A stretch of DNA of 56,306 nucleotides. Source: Candidatus Woesearchaeota archaeon (lineage in GTDB: Archaea; Nanobdellota; Nanobdellia; SCGC-AAA011-G17; GW2011-AR20). Where the stretch lies: assembly GCA_016203115.1 (NCBI GenBank), contig JACQNJ010000022.1, positions 1 through 56,306 on the forward strand. The letters are read 5' to 3'. Shown piece after piece: positions 5,425 through 56,306 of the stretch (position 1 is its first letter; every line of letters begins with the position of its first letter). Under the pieces are notes generated by a model. That model was given only the letters and a program-made list of their open reading frames with translations. It was not told the DNA's origin and made no database searches. Position numbers and translations under genes: made by a program.

Positions 5425-5819
5425 TAAAAGTTGTTACTGCATTGATATTAAACCCCGAGAACAATAAGTTTCTTATTGTCAAGAGGAAACATTCTGAAAG
5501 CATTCATTCTTCTTTATGGGCTTTTCCTGGCGGCAGAGTAGAGAAAGATGAGGATATTATTGAAGCATTAAAAAGGGAGGTTAAGGAAGAGACAAATTTA
5601 GATGTTAAAAATGATTTTAAGCAACTTTCTGGATTTGAGTATGTGAGGCCTGATAAGGAGATCACTGTTGGATTTTGCTTTAGCTGCACATCTTTAAATA
5701 GGGATGTCATTATTTCTGATGAATTAGATGATTTTAAATGGATAAAACCAGGGGAATTTTTAAATTATAAGCACATCCCCGGGTTGGAGAAAGAAGTGAA
5801 AAAAGCATTTTCTGGTTAA
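5421..5819 (+). CDS. Nudix hydrolase
   Basis: Near-canonical Nudix box GGRVEKDEDIIEALKREVKEETNL. ATGA overlap with the GT9 gene. Confidence 0.85.
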   Translation: MIKVVTALILNPENNKFLIVKRKHSESIHSSLWAFPGGRVEKDEDIIEALKREVKEETNLDVKNDFKQLSGFEYVRPDKEITVGFCFSCTSLNRDVIISDELDDFKWIKPGEFLNYKHIPGLEKEVKKAFSG

Positions 5820-10697: not shown

Positions 10698-10787
10698 TTT
10701 AATTTCTACTAAATTATTCCTCTTTTTTCTCTCTTATAAGTAGTATAAATAGAAAACCTTAAAAAGTTGTTTATTCTATTAACTAAA

Positions 10788-50829: not shown

Positions 50830-51291
50830 CTAATTGGTAATTATAACCCAATCTGTGGACATTCTCTGGGCTCCTTGACAGAATTGGCTTGCCATCTCTA
50901 TATATTTTACAACTGGAAGGTAAACCGGGACTGTATAATCATACACTCTTTCAGACTTGTAAGGATTAGAATTATAAGTTCCACCGGCACAATCTACAAT
51001 TTGATAGCAACCAGCATTAGTCCCATCACCATATCTAAGTTCGACAGGGCTACCTATATTTATTCCGGGGCATGTAGTAACAACAGTTCCAGGGGCATAT
51101 TCCTTAGAGTTAACGACGGAATTTGGAACTGCAGCCCTTACATTATCATTAACTCGTACACTATCAGTATAAGTTGGAAATGTTTGAACATTCCTCCTTG
51201 AGCGAACCCCTCCAACAGCTTCCTGACAGCCTGCAATGAATAGTATGGAAACAACAAGAAAACTAAAAATTATCAAATTCCTCTTTTGCAT
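50830..51291 (-). CDS. secreted lipoprotein-like protein, paralogue of 34605..35108
   Basis: MQKRNLIIFSFLVVSILFIAGCQE. Shares the 45-nt identical promoter/5' block (51275-51319 = 35092-35136). Confidence 0.55.
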   Translation of the reverse strand: MQKRNLIIFSFLVVSILFIAGCQEAVGGVRSRRNVQTFPTYTDSVRVNDNVRAAVPNSVVNSKEYAPGTVVTTCPGINIGSPVELRYGDGTNAGCYQIVDCAGGTYNSNPYKSERVYDYTVPVYLPVVKYIEMASQFCQGAQRMSTDWVIITN

Positions 51292-51327
51292 GAAAAGTAG
51301 AAAGTAATTTGAGATATATATACCTTT

Positions 51328-51335
51328 TGGTTTTT
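51328..51335 (+). repeat. 8-bp target-site duplication TGGTTTTT (left copy)
   Basis: Identical 8-mer abuts the outer edge of both terminal inverted repeats (partner 56184-56191). Confidence 0.75.
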
Positions 51336-51349
51336 CTTAATGTCGTAAA

Positions 51350-52600
51350 TTAGGGTGTTTTCTTTAAAATCTCTTTTTTTGTCGTATTCGGGTGTTTTGC
51401 CAATTCTTCATCATAATCTAAGGCTTGGCTTAACAACCCTAACCATCTATTCTTTCCAAGAGCTAATTCTATGTTTGCTATTTGAGAAGGTGTTAATCCG
51501 TTTAAAGACATGTGCTTTTTAATGAAGTTATGATATAACTTAAATCCTTGATTTATGTCTTCCATAGTTTCTTCATTGCCAAATCCTCTTCTTACTTTGT
51601 CAAACTCTCTAAACTCTCCGTGATACCTTTCTATCAAGTTATTATTTTCTATTTTGGCTACTCCAACATTCCTAATATGCTTAGTCCTGTTAGTTCTTCT
51701 TTTATGCACATTAAACTCTTTCTTAACTGCTTTATCGTAAGTATGGCTACCATCTGTGTAAATCTCTTCTGGTAAATTAACGCTTTGCTCTTTAGCTTGT
51801 TTATACATCTTTATTGTATCCTTGATAGTTCTGGTTTTAGATAAGTGAGTGGAAAGTAAAAACCTTGTTTCTTTGTCAATAACATTATTATTCCATTTCC
51901 ATTTATCCCCCACCTTAACCATCTGCTCATCATTATGCCATCTTGAAGATGTTTCTGCTTTCTGCTCTTTTACATAGTTATTCATTAACTTAGTGTATTT
52001 TCTAATCCATCTTCTTATGGTATCAAAATGGATATTCTTGTTTTGAAACTGCTGAAAATGGTCTCTGATGTCCCTTAAGGAAAATCCCTTAAAATACAAG
52101 TCCATAGTCAAGGCTAAGGTCTTTCCATCTGCTTTGATATATTTTAACTGCTCTAAGACAAATCTCTTACTGCAATCTGCACAACTGTATCTCTGCTTAA
52201 CTCCTGATTTATTCTTTCTTATTCCATCTCTCTTGATGTTAAAACTCTCACAATGAGGACAGGCTTCTTCTTTAGTATCTATGTTATCTAAGTCCAAAGA
52301 ATTTCTTAATTTAAGCCATACCTGAATGCTTTGAATATGTTTGCATGGAACTCCTGTATTTTTTCCTATCTCTTGAAAATCTGGACAATTGCAAGTCCAT
52401 AAATCCTTGAATTTAACATTATACTTCTTTTCTGCATTGAATTGAGAAGGGACTAAAAACTCTTCTTCTGATATTATTACAGGGGTTTTCCCAGAATTAA
52501 TAAGAGCATAGGCTCTCTTTCTTCTTTCTATTTTTGCATTAGAAAGGTTTAAATTAATGCTTTCTTCTTTACTCTTGGGGTTTAATTTGTTTTGCGACAT
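51350..52600 (-). CDS. DDE transposase, IS6/IS240-like, with N-terminal SWIM-like and Zn-ribbon fingers
   Basis: CNCPDF...CKHI (SWIM-like) and CPHC...CADC. DDE contexts are WHNDEQMV, IYTDGSHTYDKA and NNLIERYHGEFREFDKVRRGF. Confidence 0.8.
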   Translation of the reverse strand: MSQNKLNPKSKEESINLNLSNAKIERRKRAYALINSGKTPVIISEEEFLVPSQFNAEKKYNVKFKDLWTCNCPDFQEIGKNTGVPCKHIQSIQVWLKLRNSLDLDNIDTKEEACPHCESFNIKRDGIRKNKSGVKQRYSCADCSKRFVLEQLKYIKADGKTLALTMDLYFKGFSLRDIRDHFQQFQNKNIHFDTIRRWIRKYTKLMNNYVKEQKAETSSRWHNDEQMVKVGDKWKWNNNVIDKETRFLLSTHLSKTRTIKDTIKMYKQAKEQSVNLPEEIYTDGSHTYDKAVKKEFNVHKRRTNRTKHIRNVGVAKIENNNLIERYHGEFREFDKVRRGFGNEETMEDINQGFKLYHNFIKKHMSLNGLTPSQIANIELALGKNRWLGLLSQALDYDEELAKHPNTTKKEILKKTP

Positions 52601-52611
52601 GTTGGACTCCT

Positions 52612-52628
52612 GCGGGATTTATTCCCGC
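52612..52628 (-). promoter_or_regulatory. GC-rich hairpin (GCGGGA-5 nt-TCCCGC) between the RHH stop and the transposase start
   Basis: 6-bp stem (5 G:C) in an AT-rich context. On the coding strand it is followed by aGGAGtccaacATG. Confidence 0.35.
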
Positions 52629-52634
52629 TAATCT

Positions 52635-52757
52635 TTATTTTATACATTTTTTAATTGCATCCAAGATAATTTCCTGAATGTCTTTTTTATCATCTATGCT
52701 TTTATGCCTTAACTTATCATGCATCTCTTCTGGTAAGTCAAGCAGAAACTTTCCCAT
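52635..52757 (-). CDS. ribbon-helix-helix (CopG/Arc-like) small protein, 40 aa (below ORF-track cutoff)
   Basis: Own translation: MGKFLLDLPEEMHDKLRHKSIDDKKDIQEIILDAIKKCIK*. Shows the beta-strand/helix/helix pattern of RHH proteins. SD-like GGGGTGA lies 6 nt upstream. Confidence 0.5.
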   Translation of the reverse strand: MGKFLLDLPEEMHDKLRHKSIDDKKDIQEIILDAIKKCIK

Positions 52758-52919
52758 CACTTATCACCCCTTATCTTATGTGTATTATTCATATAATATA
52801 GATAGTATAGCTTATATATAAAGGTTTCGGTAGGAAAATATATTGGCAGTAAAATTGCTATAATTCAGTAGTAATGAAAAACAGTAAAGTTGATAAATAG
52901 AAAGGTTTTGTTATTTTGC

Positions 52920-55622
52920 ATGAGAAATCTGTTTTGTGATGAAAAAAACTTAATTAATGAGGCTACTGTTGAGAGTTTATTTGTAGATAGATTACTTACT
53001 TTTTTAATTTTTAAAGACGAAAATATTAAAAGAAAAAATAGTATACAAATACTAACCATAGGCAAGGGCTCTAAGAAAGAGCAACATAAACCCGATTATG
53101 TGTGTTTTGTTAAGAGCAAACCAAAAATAGTTATTGATGCTAAAGACCCAAAAGAAGATGTAGATGATTACATCTACCAAACCTCTGGATATTCTCTTTC
53201 ATTAAACCAAAAATTTGATAATGAAAATCCTGTTGAATATTTTATTTTAACAAATGGTTTTATATTAAAATTATTTAAGTGGGATAATGAAAGACCGATA
53301 TTAACATTAAAATTTAAAGATTTTGAGAAAAATAATCCTAAACTTGAAAAATTACAGAACATAATATCTTTTAAAATATTAAGTAAAAGAAAGCCACAAG
53401 AAATACAAGATTTAGTTAAAGGGTTTGAATTTAGAAAGCCAAAATCAAATAATGAGATTGAAGCAATATTTAGGGCGTGTCATCAAATAATTTGGAGAAA
53501 AGACAATATAAAACCTTCAGAAGCTTTCCCAGAATTTGCTAAATTATCTTTTATAAAAATACATTATGATAGAAAAATTCATGATATGATGAGAAGGGGG
53601 GAAAAACCAAAAAAGGAAGATTATACCTTTAGTGTTGATTGGATTGAAAAGCAAGAAAAAGAGTTAAATGAAGATAATCCTGTATCTAATATTTTATTCA
53701 AAAAACTAAGAGAAGATTTAGAAGATGAAATAAAAAAAGGAATAAAAAAAAGAATTTTTAATTCCAATGAAGAATTAAATATAAACGCTTCAACAATAAA
53801 AGAAGTAGTTAGGTTATTAGAACATTACAACTTATTTGGGATTGATGAAGATTTAAATGGTAGGATGTTTGAAGCTTTTTTGAGTGCTACTGTTAGAGGA
53901 GAAGCTCTTGGTCAATTCTTTACTCCAAGAACTGTTGTTAAATGTATGACACAGATGGCTAAAATAAAATCAGGTAAGAACAAAATAGATGTTGTTCTTG
54001 ATGGTTTTTGTGGTAGCGGTGGTTTTCTAATAGAAGCTATGACTATAATGAGGGAAAAGATTGAAAAAAATAAGTCATTAACAGACAAAGAAATAGAAAA
54101 TTTAAAAGACAAAATTGTTCAGGAATGCTTATATGGAATAGATGCAGATAAAAGCCCATATTTTAAGATTTCAAGAATAGCAAGGATGAATATGGTAATG
54201 CACGGAGATGGGAATAATCGTATTTATTGGTTACCAGATACATTAGACAAAAATATAGAAATTGAAAAGAGTGTTAATAAAGAATTAAGACAAGAAGCGG
54301 AAGAATTAAAGGCAAAAATTAAAGAAAATGATTTAAAATTTGATATTGTCTTAACCAATCCCCCATTTAGTAGGGGGTATAACAAAAATAAAAAAGATGA
54401 AGCTAAAATATTAGATAAATATGATATTGCCCATAAAGAAGATACTAATAAACTAAAGTCTATTAGGTCTAATGTTCTTTCTTTAGAAGTTTATAGAGAT
54501 TTATTAAAACCACACGGAAAACTTATTACTGTAATGGACGAGAGTGTTCTTAATTCTTATTCTGGAAGAGAATACAGAAAATTTATTAAAAAATATTTTA
54601 TAGTTAAAGCAGTAATATCCCTTCCTCAAAACGCTTTTTTTAATGCAGATGCCAATGTAAAAACGTCTATACTTTATTTAGTGAAAAAAGACAATGAAGA
54701 TGAAGAGCAAGGTGATGTTTTTATGGCTGTAAGCAATAATATAGGTCATAGTGATTCTGGAAAATCCGATTTAGAAAGCTGTGACCTCTTGAAAGTTTAT
54801 GATTATTCACATAAAGTTGTTAATGAAAAGATTGACAAAAGCATATTAGAAAAGTTTTTAGAATATGAAGAAAATGGGTATTTAGAGAAGGAAGACGATA
54901 CAGCATTTATAATAAAAAAGGAAGAGATTGCTACAGCAAATTCAGAAAAAGAAGATGAATTGAAAGGAAGATTAGATTGTTATTCTCATATGCCATCTTA
55001 TAAAAAACTTTTGAAAGAATTGAAAAATCTGGAAAAAGACGGAAAAGTAGAACTTCTTAAAGGAGAAGATTTAGATGTTATAGACCAAATGTCAAAAGAA
55101 GAATATGACAAATTAAAGACTAAAACATTTAAATATATTGACATAGGAAATACAGAAAAAGATTTAGGTATGATTAGAGGTTCTGAAGAAGATTTGCTTA
55201 TTGCGTTACCAACAAGAGCAAGAATGCTAATAAAAGAAAATGACATTTTAATTCCCGCACCTGTTCATTCTGCTTCTGGAATAATTATAATTCCTAAAGA
55301 ATATGAGGGTCAATTATGCTCAAATGGATTTATAGTTATTAGACCTAAAGATTATAGCGAAGCAGTTTTAATTTATACTATTTTAAAAAGCGAATTTCTC
55401 CAAAAGCAATTCTTTCATCTTCAAAGTGGTATAAATCAACAAATGATAACAGATAGAAATTTTAAGAACTTTGTTTATATACCAATTCCAAAAAAAGTAT
55501 ATGATAAAGAGAAGATGATAAAAAATATAAAGAGTTTAATAGGCGAAGCTAAAAAGTTAAAAGAAAATTATAGTGAAAAATTAGTTAAAATCCAAGATGA
55601 ATTTTTAGAGGTTATATCGTAA
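52920..55622 (+). CDS. single-chain restriction-modification enzyme (type IIG-like): HsdR-N PD-(D/E)XK nuclease + gamma-class N6-adenine methyltransferase + one HsdS-like target-recognition domain
   Basis: The track ORF starts at a TTG (52890); the first ATG is 52920. Nuclease KPDYVCF...IVIDAKDP. MTase motifs GQFFTPR, VLDGFCGSGGFLIEA and IVLTNPPFS. The C-terminal ~200 aa (YIDIGNTEK...NDILIPAPV...SNGFIVIRPK...ILKSEF) are TRD-like. Confidence 0.8.
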   Translation: MRNLFCDEKNLINEATVESLFVDRLLTFLIFKDENIKRKNSIQILTIGKGSKKEQHKPDYVCFVKSKPKIVIDAKDPKEDVDDYIYQTSGYSLSLNQKFDNENPVEYFILTNGFILKLFKWDNERPILTLKFKDFEKNNPKLEKLQNIISFKILSKRKPQEIQDLVKGFEFRKPKSNNEIEAIFRACHQIIWRKDNIKPSEAFPEFAKLSFIKIHYDRKIHDMMRRGEKPKKEDYTFSVDWIEKQEKELNEDNPVSNILFKKLREDLEDEIKKGIKKRIFNSNEELNINASTIKEVVRLLEHYNLFGIDEDLNGRMFEAFLSATVRGEALGQFFTPRTVVKCMTQMAKIKSGKNKIDVVLDGFCGSGGFLIEAMTIMREKIEKNKSLTDKEIENLKDKIVQECLYGIDADKSPYFKISRIARMNMVMHGDGNNRIYWLPDTLDKNIEIEKSVNKELRQEAEELKAKIKENDLKFDIVLTNPPFSRGYNKNKKDEAKILDKYDIAHKEDTNKLKSIRSNVLSLEVYRDLLKPHGKLITVMDESVLNSYSGREYRKFIKKYFIVKAVISLPQNAFFNADANVKTSILYLVKKDNEDEEQGDVFMAVSNNIGHSDSGKSDLESCDLLKVYDYSHKVVNEKIDKSILEKFLEYEENGYLEKEDDTAFIIKKEEIATANSEKEDELKGRLDCYSHMPSYKKLLKELKNLEKDGKVELLKGEDLDVIDQMSKEEYDKLKTKTFKYIDIGNTEKDLGMIRGSEEDLLIALPTRARMLIKENDILIPAPVHSASGIIIIPKEYEGQLCSNGFIVIRPKDYSEAVLIYTILKSEFLQKQFFHLQSGINQQMITDRNFKNFVYIPIPKKVYDKEKMIKNIKSLIGEAKKLKENYSEKLVKIQDEFLEVIS

Positions 55623-55777
55623 TGGCAAGACCGACTAGAACAGATAATTTAGTTAAGCATCTTATGATAAATAGAAGGGGCAAGACTAAAGAAATTAAGG
55701 ATGTAGAAAAGAAGCCAAAAGACCCAGAAGATGTTAAGAGATTATTAGAGATGTGGCAAAAGAATAAGAAAAAATGA
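55622..55777 (+). CDS. small basic protein, 51 aa (below ORF-track cutoff)
   Basis: Own translation: MARPTRTDNLVKHLMINRRGKTKEIKDVEKKPKDPEDVKRLLEMWQKNKKK*. Its start overlaps the R-M stop (TAATG) and its stop overlaps the next start (ATGA). Confidence 0.3.
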   Translation: MARPTRTDNLVKHLMINRRGKTKEIKDVEKKPKDPEDVKRLLEMWQKNKKK

Positions 55778-56124
55778 GCATAGACCCACAGCTAACAGCT
55801 TTACAAGTCTATTCATCTTATGTTTTGATTAAATTAAAAATGATTGATTGGAAATGGTGGATACTTGCAGGTATTGGTTTAGGTGGGCTTATTTATGCTA
55901 TTAAAACTTATAATTTAAAGAAAAATAAAGAAAATTTAGAATCAGATAAAAAAGTCTGGATAGCCATATTACAACCAAATTGCACACATAAGGAGGGGAT
56001 TACTCATAGTCCATTCAATTACCAAATAGGCGAAGAGACTTTTATTACAGAGAAAGAAAAGCAATTTTTAGAGGAATGTTATAAAAATAATGGATACGAT
56101 TGGTTTGAATTTAAGAAAAGATAA
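55774..56124 (+). CDS. single-pass membrane protein, 116 aa, unknown function
   Basis: TM segment WWILAGIGLGGLIYAI. The C-terminal ~70 aa are soluble with 2 Cys. It is the last ORF before the right inverted repeat. Confidence 0.35.
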   Translation: MSIDPQLTALQVYSSYVLIKLKMIDWKWWILAGIGLGGLIYAIKTYNLKKNKENLESDKKVWIAILQPNCTHKEGITHSPFNYQIGEETFITEKEKQFLEECYKNNGYDWFEFKKR

Positions 56125-56183
56125 GAGCCTCCCACCACCCGAATACGACACCTTTAATTAACCCCCGACTTTACGACACTAAG

Positions 56184-56191
56184 TGGTTTTT
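56184..56191 (+). repeat. 8-bp target-site duplication TGGTTTTT (right copy)
   Basis: See 51328-51335. Confidence 0.75.
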
Positions 56192-56196
56192 AGTAA

Positions 56197-56263
56197 CCGT
56201 TTAGCTGCTAAGGGTTTGCCTTAGCATGCTATAAGTATTAAGCCCTCTTAAGTTCCATGTAGC
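56197..56263. repeat. 67-nt repeat, copy B (inverted relative to 35147..35213)
   Basis: 60/67 identity to the reverse complement of copy A. Lies 5 nt beyond the transposon's right TSD. Confidence 0.8.
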
Positions 56264-56306
56264 TAATACTGACATTATTGTTTCTTTAATCATTATTCCT
56301 TTCTCA

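Follow-up and report, generated by a model that had tools for sequence, protein, structure and literature searches.

A probable IS6-related unit transposon carrying a restriction-modification gene in a Candidatus Woesearchaeota contig

Contig JACQNJ010000022.1 of Candidatus Woesearchaeota archaeon (assembly GCA_016203115.1), analyzed over its whole length of 56,306 nucleotides and referred to below as the window, carries near its right end a transposon that reads, directly from the sequence, as one 4,848-bp unit with five open reading frames (ORFs) at positions 51336-56183. There is good reason to regard this unit as a probably functional unit transposon, a 'transporter IS' (tIS) of an archaeal lineage related to the insertion sequence (IS) family IS6, with a restriction-modification (R-M) enzyme as cargo. 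IS6/IS26 elements, the textbook 'minimal' insertion sequences, can mobilize other genes only when a copy lies on each side of them. In the window, transposase and passenger genes lie together within one inverted-repeat pair and one target duplication, the arrangement that defines a tIS or unit transposon. The features that delimit the element, and its transposase, are the following.

51328-51335, no strand: left 8-bp target duplication TGGTTTTT (direct reading)
51336-51359, plus strand: transposase-proximal terminal inverted repeat CTTAATGTCGTAAATTAGGGTGTT, 24 nt at 83%, with the motif TGTCGTA-N-GGG
51350-52600, minus strand: transposase, 416 aa (Pfam, NCBIfam, alignment of 23 homologs, AlphaFold (AF2) model)
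51380-51394, plus strand: subterminal repeat TGTCGTATTCGGGTG, second predicted site, at nt 45 from the tip (inverted copy at 56136-56150)
56136-56150, minus strand: cargo-distal subterminal repeat, exact inverted TGTCGTATTCGGGTG, at nt 34 from the tip (sequence reading)
56160-56183, minus strand: cargo-distal terminal inverted repeat, reverse complement CTTAGTGTCGTAAAGTCGGGGGTT (repeat search; end of homology to the related locus L002)
56184-56191, no strand: right 8-bp target duplication TGGTTTTT (direct reading)

An initial annotation, made from the sequence alone, had described the 14-nt inverted ends, the inverted subterminal 15-mer and the identical 8-mer directly outside both ends, and all three statements hold on direct reading. 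The left tip at 51336-51349 (CTTAATGTCGTAAA) and the reverse complement of 56170-56183 (CTTAGTGTCGTAAA) are identical at 13/14 positions and agree at 17/20 over 20 nt; a repeat search carries the terminal repeat to 24 nt (51336-51359 and 56160-56183), over which the arms differ at 4/24 positions. TGTCGTA-N-GGG in the proximal arm is the first predicted motif of transposase-binding type, and the 15-mer at 51380-51394, with its exact inverted copy at 56136-56150, lies inward of it. Insertion of the 4,848-bp unit at 8-bp staggered cuts gives the perfect duplication of TGGTTTTT, a signature that recurs across the clade described below. The window was scanned for 14-nt inverted repeats (at most one mismatch, arms 0.7-8 kb apart) with a perfect 8-bp direct repeat immediately outside them; the 51336-56183 element is the one occurrence, compared with 0.015 expected per Markov-shuffled window.

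The window contains no other match to either arm at 15/20 or better and no further copies or solo ends of the element; nor is there an inner inverted repeat anywhere in 52601-56135, including the interval between the transposase start and the R-M gene, where the initial annotation had also reported none. Nucleotide homology to two independent related loci gives the same limits. With L001 homology starts exactly at 51336, and with L002 it comprises 51336-52533 and 56138-56183 and ends exactly at the tips of the L002 element (at the distal end 83% over 48 nt, stopping at 56183). Because homology to L001 and L002 stops at these points and the cargo between the ends is unrelated to theirs, the unit is bounded at 51336 and 56183. 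The earlier proposal that the mobile unit is the whole 4,848 bp is thus upheld by the duplication, the lack of an inner repeat and the limits of homology.

The minus-strand transposase gene runs into the proximal end, so that both proximal repeats lie in or beside its 3' end. The subterminal repeat at 51380-51394 is inside the ORF and encodes the C-terminal residues HPNTT (~403-407), of which a PNTT motif is visible near the C-terminus in the protein alignment of 23 homologs; since the repeat encodes this conserved stretch, 51380-51394 is constrained both as a predicted binding site and as coding sequence. The GC content is 0.24-0.30 in the cargo, 0.31-0.33 in the transposase part and 0.32-0.38 in the upstream host flank.

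Related elements and the architecture of their ends

A protein search returns ~190 transposase homologs of 370-425 aa, mostly from metagenome-assembled genomes (MAGs) of Woesearchaeota, Nanoarchaeota and other DPANN archaea, and an exhaustive profile search returns 632 clusters (50% identity) at E<=1e-30. The loci surveyed were 66 from GTDB genomes together with the contexts of the closest homologs, and elements were delimited by an inverted repeat anchored near the transposase stop plus a flanking perfect 8-bp repeat (for L069, by relaxed repeat criteria). Twelve further elements of 2,219-9,733 bp with perfect 8-bp duplications, from archaeal and mostly DPANN MAGs, were delimited in this way.

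L006, 2313 bp, duplication AAAAACAA
L009, 7743 bp, duplication TGGCTTTA
L012, 9733 bp, duplication CTTGTGCT
L015, 3487 bp, duplication CTATTTGG
L017, 3274 bp, duplication TCTATAAT
L018, 3867 bp, duplication AGGAATAG
L022, 2269 bp, duplication TGATTTGG
L034, 2578 bp, duplication CGAATTCA
L035, 2219 bp, duplication AAAATTCT
L038, 3784 bp, duplication TTATTCAA
L051, 3401 bp, duplication GTATATCG
L069, 5047 bp, duplication CAAAAACG

These twelve relatives bear out the 8-bp duplication as a trait of the family. Every delimited element carries at least ~0.7 kb of extra genes, so that there is no bare IS among them, and no delimited relative below 2.2 kb was found; neither was a closer-in repeat that would delimit a ~1.5-kb IS, an observation that the initial annotation had named as one that would refute its reading. 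Delimiting more relatives by exact inverted 11-mers, with the duplication requirement dropped, yielded mostly noise, and a metagenome scan with a close-transposase alignment found at least nine loci, all distant.

All 13 delimited elements (the window included) and L002 share an arm of tip, TGT and GGG together with a second subterminal site. Each arm begins with five variable tip bases, followed by TGT at positions 6-8 (26/26 arms), A at position 12 (23/26) and GGG near positions 18-20; the second motif copy usually starts at nt 33-34 on the cargo side and at nt 45 on the transposase side, and the difference of 11 nt between the proximal and distal offsets is about one helical turn. The subterminal motif recurs at this position in L001-L006, L009-L015 and others. 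Between L009 and L012, homology extends over the 49-nt distal end (100%) and the transposase module (85%) only, and it stops exactly at the element tips. Because homology in both the L001/L002 and the L009/L012 comparisons is limited to ends and transposase, these form the conserved unit and the cargo is exchangeable. The element thus belongs to a large archaeal family, mostly of DPANN and 2.2-9.7 kb in size, in which the module of transposase and ends is conserved and cargo is freely exchanged. The L002 element (2,771 bp) has the same tips as the window (CTTAATGTCGTAAA...). Loci L002-L005 have identical flanks and represent one insertion seen in four Hainich groundwater samples; they were therefore rejected as independent insertions and are uninformative on mobility.

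Some further features of the relatives were observed. Two family transposases lie close together in direct orientation in L035 (6813-9031 and 10001-11122) and in L017 plus L071 on JAFCDX010000003.1, an arrangement that would be expected after formation of an IS6-type cointegrate or pseudo-compound transposon and is compatible with it, though not diagnostic. L017 (7893-11166) has a perfect duplication and a longest transposase ORF of 243 aa, and appears to be a decaying copy. Read in the transposase-plus orientation, the window duplication AAAAACCA is almost the same as that of L006 (AAAAACAA, L006:2997-3004), and CCA/TGG occurs within several other duplications; a weak target preference is possible. 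Among 2.9 million viral contigs of IMG/VR a single transposase relative was found (L090, IMGVR_UViG_3300023257_000175, 38% identity), and for this reason the family is not obviously virus-borne.

The transposase and its family assignment

The transposase consists, in order, of an N-terminal SWIM zinc finger, a C4 zinc ribbon, a helix-turn-helix (HTH) region and the DDE core. The core matches Pfam PF13610 DDE_Tnp_IS240 (3.9e-17, 63.1 bits vs a cut-off of 27) and the finger matches Pfam SWIM (1.9e-4, 21.3 bits vs a cut-off of 19.6); the four-cysteine ribbon, of the IS1/IS1595/IS256 type, spans residues 113-149 (NCBIfam NF050000, NF048018). In 23 homologs D224, D283, E324 and R331 (E+7) are invariant, as are C70, C72, C86 and H88 of the SWIM finger and C114, C117, C140 and C143 of the ribbon. 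The top NCBIfam model is NF033587 transpos_IS6 (1.7e-32, 112.8 bits; equivalog cut-off 125), with IS1 (53.6 bits), IS256 (27.9 bits) and IS481 far behind. In a tblastn search of 72,556 plasmids 1,688 records matched, and the annotated matches among the 25 listed are all 'IS6 family transposase' (24-31% identity over residues ~114/150-387). The initial description of an IS6/IS240-like DDE transposase therefore stands on the Pfam and NCBIfam scores, with strict IS6/IS26 membership debatable given the missed equivalog cut-off, the extra domains and the cargo.

The AlphaFold model of the transposase (pLDDT 76.5, pTM 0.76) matches the RNase-H-fold proteins ISCth4, TnsB, retroviral integrases and MuA, ISCth4 of the IS256 family being the best match in PDB by both sequence and fold. 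A sequence-profile search found no IS6-family entry in PDB; because the database holds no sequence-detectable IS6 structure, this structural ranking cannot discriminate between families.

According to a 2021 review of IS6, most members are 700-890 bp and seven are 1,230-1,460 bp, with 8-bp direct repeats and inverted repeats bearing a cTGTt motif as hallmarks, and ISDsp3 of Dehalococcoides is the only IS6-family tIS listed, with one passenger gene (PMC7986276). The terminal repeat consensus of IS6/IS26 is GGTTCTGTTGCAAA, and Harmer & Hall question whether archaeal 'IS6' elements and those with long transposases are part of IS6/IS26 (PMC6807381). In a comparison of IS6 traits that included the GG tip and the cTGTt/caaa motifs, the window arm agrees with GGTTCTGTTGCAAA at 8/14 positions and its tips are CT in place of the IS6-typical GG; the L035 arm agrees at 12/14, GG tips are present in some relatives, and L069 starts with GGTTCTGTC.

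Compared with IS26, IS257/IS431 and IS6100, the window element is alike in its DDE domain by IS240/IS6 profiles, in the order of HTH and then DDE, in the K/R seven residues after E, in the 8-bp duplication and in TGT at positions 6-8 as in GGTTCTGTTGCAAA, some relatives starting with GGTTCTGT. Unlike these compact elements of 0.7-0.9 kb (rarely 1.5), however, it is ~6 times longer and has five ORFs vs one; its transposase has 416 aa vs ~235 (230-250), with the SWIM finger and C4 ribbon added, and is only 24-31% identical to bacterial IS6 transposases; a second, subterminal site is present at both ends, with unequal spacing, and cargo is inside one element, whereas theirs lies between two direct copies (pseudo-compound transposon). 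ISDsp3 is likewise of IS6 type and carries, between its inverted repeats, a gene other than that of the transposase, but by its description it is a single copy with one hypothetical passenger, in contrast to a clade with 0.7-8 kb of variable cargo that includes complete defense systems. The long clostridial IS6-like elements (clades VII/VIII in PMC6807381; h/i in PMC7986276) resemble the window element in an N-terminally extended transposase with a zinc finger or extra domain and in a longer repeat consensus whose outermost bases are often not GG, and a match on a C. botulinum plasmid (H1, ~26% identity) starts at residue 114 and so includes the zinc ribbon; they differ in being 1.2-1.5 kb without cargo, and no SWIM match was seen in them by tblastn, which covers residues 114-387 only. 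Tn7-like (PMC8649781) and Tn3-family unit transposons also have asymmetric ends with several transposase-binding sites, and they combine a constant transposition module with exchangeable, variable cargo rich in defense and addiction modules, but the window element has a single small DDE transposase without TnsABC/D-type machinery, resolvase or target selector, an 8-bp duplication vs their 5 bp, and an archaeal host.

SWIM fingers are otherwise typical of Mutator-like transposases. This is one of several points that would favor a separate family, related to IS6, IS1 and IS256, for what would still be a genuine cargo transposon, moving by another route such as cut-and-paste, so that inferences from IS26 would be void. 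The IS6 score is under its cut-off, IS1, IS481 and IS256 models and the zinc-ribbon domains of IS1/IS1595/IS256 match as well, the best relatives of solved structure are ISCth4 of IS256/Mutator, two-site ends and tips other than GG are foreign to IS6, and Harmer & Hall would exclude archaeal and long forms (PMC6807381). This alternative is nevertheless the less likely one, since IS6 scores best by a wide margin (112.8 vs 53.6 and 27.9 bits), the annotated plasmid matches among the 25 listed all carry the IS6 label, the length of the duplication (8 bp) and the place of the TGT core in the arms fit the IS6 consensus (PMC6807381), and the structural ranking is uninformative for the reason given above. 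The kind to which the element belongs (DDE, IS6-like, with 8-bp duplication) is known. What appears to be new is the unit architecture with cargo, the additional domains, the ends with two sites each, the recurrence of this pattern throughout the clade and the sharing of an R-M cassette among transposon lineages. No description of this transposon clade, or of IS6-like DPANN transposons with defense cargo, was found in the literature searched, ISfinder not being covered. The initial annotation had called such a derivative unusual, which is correct against the ISfinder picture of one member with one passenger (PMC7986276) but not within the archaeal clade, where cargo is the rule.

Cargo genes and the restriction-modification cassette

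The remaining genes of the element and the region between its two divergent units are the following.

52635-52760, minus strand: 41-aa small ORF directly upstream of the transposase, putative regulator of ribbon-helix-helix (RHH) type
52761-52919, no strand: divergent intergenic region, candidate control region separating the RHH/transposase unit from the R-M operon
52920-55622, plus strand: 900-aa single-chain R-M enzyme (Pfam, PDB sequence match, PADLOC)
55622-55777, plus strand: 51-aa cargo ORF, its start overlapping the R-M stop (TAATG)
55774-56124, plus strand: 116-aa cargo ORF with one hydrophobic segment, its start overlapping the stop of the 51-aa ORF (ATGA)

The claim of an R-M-like enzyme in the cargo is well supported by its HSDR_N, N6_Mtase and BsaXI matches; only the start needs correction, being most likely ATG 52920, which gives 900 aa as in the homologs, and not TTG 52890. 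The protein has a PD-(D/E)XK nuclease at its N-terminus, followed by a gamma-type N6-adenine methyltransferase and, at the C-terminus, a single target-recognition domain (TRD). Pfam finds HSDR_N (25.9 bits, cut-off 25.1), N6_Mtase (114 bits) and Eco57I, PADLOC finds MTase_I/II and REase_MTase_IIG, and the motifs PD...IDAK, FCGSGGF and NPPF are intact in the translation. The best PDB sequence match is RM.BsaXI (8w0p, E 2.6e-29, residues 14-598), and residues 733-882 match the TRDs of Type I S subunits (5ybb_D, 3okg; E ~2e-14). Because of the BsaXI and TRD alignments, the Pfam and PADLOC matches and the intact motifs, the enzyme is assigned as a predicted fused nuclease-methylase-specificity protein of Type IIB/IIG kind. 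As in BsaXI and other Type IIB/IIG enzymes, a gamma-class N6-adenine methyltransferase follows an N-terminal PD-(D/E)XK nuclease in one chain; enzymes of this class cut a set distance away from their recognition site, those of Type IIB on both sides of it. In contrast to the separate S subunit of BsaXI, one Type I-S-like TRD is fused at the C-terminus of the window enzyme, and given this single fused TRD the active form is probably a homodimer with a symmetric bipartite recognition site. An identity as MADS (MAD2) was rejected (NF047738, 175 bits vs a cut-off of 720; no other mad genes in the element).

The 51-aa and 116-aa ORFs have no Pfam, NCBIfam or PADLOC match; the former is not part of the conserved R-M cassette, whose end is at 55622, and the latter has no homolog in any fetched locus. 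What had been called an RHH protein is indeed present as the 41-aa ORF, with a 75%-identical homolog at the same position upstream of the L019 transposase, but profile support for the RHH fold is weak (Arc, E 0.065). In relatives the small ORF before the transposase encodes RHH_5 (L034, L038), a DUF2080 'putative transposon-encoded protein' (L002), MazE/AbrB (L051), a winged HTH (L022) or a zinc ribbon (L012). Their cargo includes Type III R-M (ResIII and N6_N4_Mtase; L009, L012), an AbiEi/AbiEii-like pair (L038), DUF2779 (L012), a PRC-barrel protein (L015) and many unassigned, often membrane-type ORFs. All-against-all BLASTP of the cargo ORFs shows no conserved accessory gene except the RHH in L034/L038; a conserved resolvase or helper gene was accordingly rejected, as none recurs in this comparison.

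The R-M gene has homologs of 81-88% amino acid and ~82% nucleotide identity in several loci (window ~52860-55622; L086:1453-4155; L087:5713-8480; L088:1336-4123; L084:7955-10701; L089:300-3002), and nucleotide homology of the cassette is confined to leader and ORF, i.e., ~52860-55622. Alignment of the six loci shows AAATTGCTAT..AGTAGT..AAAAACAGTAA..TTGATAAA conserved upstream of the ATG, and by this conservation the region from ~52860 onward is a putative promoter-like leader of the cassette. In L086 the R-M gene stands beside a transposase 36% identical to that of the window, in the same divergent layout, with an end-like double motif directly after the R-M stop. In L087 and L088 it is downstream of short IS6-like transposases (297-302 aa, ~30% identical to the window's, without SWIM) in elements bounded by perfect 20-24-nt repeats and flanked by perfect 9-bp direct repeats (TCTTGTTTC and CCATTTACT; L087, 4454-4486 and 8496-8528; L088, 139-170 and 4104-4135); 9-bp instead of 8-bp repeats suggest that these elements are a distinct, possibly IS1-like lineage. 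L084/85 is a transposase-less island in which a solo L087-type end, TGTATTGTTAAGTTTGGGTTGCCAG (10711-10735, minus strand; its first 14 nt equal to the L087 inverted repeat), survives directly after the R-M stop. With no partner end and no transposase within 18.7 kb, this end resembles a relic of the R-M gene's arrival on a transposon. In L089 the R-M gene is beside a GmrSD/HNH gene, without a window-type transposase. In L086 (1252-1386) and L089 (~104-238) a gene for a C-protein-like RHH protein of 44 aa stands right before the R-M gene, with the same orientation; the window has no such gene before the R-M gene, its 41-aa ORF being on the transposase strand instead.

Since the cassette recurs in several contexts with homology limited to leader and ORF, the R-M gene is recurrent transposon cargo and not a resident of the window's chromosomal locus, and its cargo status is supported by its presence inside two other IS6/IS1-like transposons (L086; L087/L088). 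Judged by these comparisons, the cassette is carried by transposons of three different IS6/IS1-like transposase lineages as well as by transposase-less defense islands.

Mobility of the window copy, proposed mechanism and significance

The left flank of the element includes a 153-aa gene (50830-51291, minus strand) whose product has a signal-peptide or lipobox-like N-terminus. The element is 45 bp upstream of its start codon (interval 51292-51335), the insertion being directly outside the TATATATA box of this gene, and the insertion may affect its promoter context. A search for a tRNA or known RNA at the insertion site found none anywhere in the window. The window, which is the entire contig, ends 115 bp past the element (56192-56306), and this right flank contains a hairpin with a perfect 7-bp stem (GCTAAGG-GTTTG-CCTTAGC). 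The contig break near the element could reflect a branch in the assembly graph, as would arise from insertion polymorphism.

The actual flank reads ...ATACCTTT, TGGTTTTT, AGTAACC..., which predicts GAGATATATATACCTTTTGGTTTTTAGTAACCGTTTAGC as the empty site; the string given in the initial annotation lacked one T. Several observations count against a functional, mobile IS6-type element, in addition to the missed equivalog cut-off, the CT tips and the weak Arc match already described. An exact scan of JGI metagenome contigs for the 24-nt junction gave 0 matches to the empty site. Exact-protein look-up gave no record for the flanking 153-aa and 214-aa genes, and look-up of the FEN1 protein gave two contigs of the same organism, both ending ~900 bp before the insertion site; this FEN1 gene is present in SRR12113383 and SRR12113424. 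The 56-kb window has a single copy of the element; about two thirds of the surveyed loci with enough flank yielded no boundaries; L002 has perfect ends but no duplication (GAAATGTT at 2937-2944 vs CTATATTT at 5716-5723); and, given the doubt of Harmer & Hall, extrapolation of the cointegrate mechanism to the window element is uncertain. Recency and actual mobility of the window copy are thus unproven without an empty site, and of the earlier claim of a recent insertion there stands the perfect duplication as its sole basis. Conversely, no locus with the R-M gene at this site in the absence of transposase or duplication was found.

The single copy, the arms differing at 4/24 positions, the failure to detect an empty site or a second copy, and the existence of decaying relatives (the truncated transposase of L017, the solo end of L084) would all fit an immobile fossil, i.e., a domesticated defense locus with its transposase and ends in decay or put to another use. 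That the window copy is such a fossil is nonetheless improbable, as the transposase ORF has its full length and retains every invariant catalytic and zinc-binding residue, the duplication is perfect, both subterminal 15-mers are identical, and the asymmetry of the arms (AAATTAGGG vs AAAGTCGGG) is also found in the L002 element; because L002 shares it, the asymmetry is a feature of the family and not decay. An ordinary ~1.5-kb IS of transposase and small ORF beside an independent chromosomal R-M gene, with the distal repeat a chance match or solo end, would agree with the size and single gene of typical IS6 members (0.7-0.9 kb; PMC7986276), with R-M genes lacking a window-type transposase in L084/85 and L089 and with the solo end remnant beside the R-M gene in L084, but deserves hardly any credence when 52601-56135 has no inner inverted repeat, the duplication flanks the 4.85-kb unit and not a sub-unit, the distal end has terminal and subterminal motifs at family-typical spacing, L002 homology ends exactly at 56183 and no relative under 2.2 kb was found.

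For the unit transposon at 51336-56183 the following mechanism is proposed. The DDE transposase would recognize two copies of TGTC(G)TA-N-GGG(TG) per end, terminal and subterminal, ~28 nt apart on the cargo side and ~39 nt on the transposase side; from the anatomy of the protein, the SWIM and C4 zinc-finger domains probably read these sites together with the HTH region. IS6/IS26 elements move only through cointegrates, made either by replicative copy-in or by a conservative reaction directed at another copy. By analogy with IS26/IS6 (PMC7986276), movement of the window element is most likely replicative ('copy-in') and would generate a cointegrate that host homologous recombination would then resolve. 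The small RHH-like protein, given its position, probably represses the divergent promoter region, and the R-M cargo may confer both defense and a post-segregational 'addiction' benefit that would aid persistence in small DPANN genomes. A broader proposal, for and against which the weight is about equal, is that these elements constitute an undescribed, large IS6-related archaeal lineage, mainly of DPANN and always with cargo, that serves as a main shuttle for R-M, defense and addiction modules, the R-M cassette having been captured independently by at least three transposase lineages.

On the preferred reading, IS6-related transposases throughout an archaeal clade move cargo that lies between one pair of ends. 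The element would be a concrete vehicle by which genes for R-M and abortive infection spread horizontally in DPANN archaea, a group with a poorly known mobilome, with the R-M cassette hopping between transposon lineages. It also offers a natural comparison of extra DNA-binding domains and bipartite ends with cargo capacity in DDE transposons. For annotation, elements of this kind are now labeled only 'IS1/IS6 family transposase' and their cargo is taken as chromosomal.

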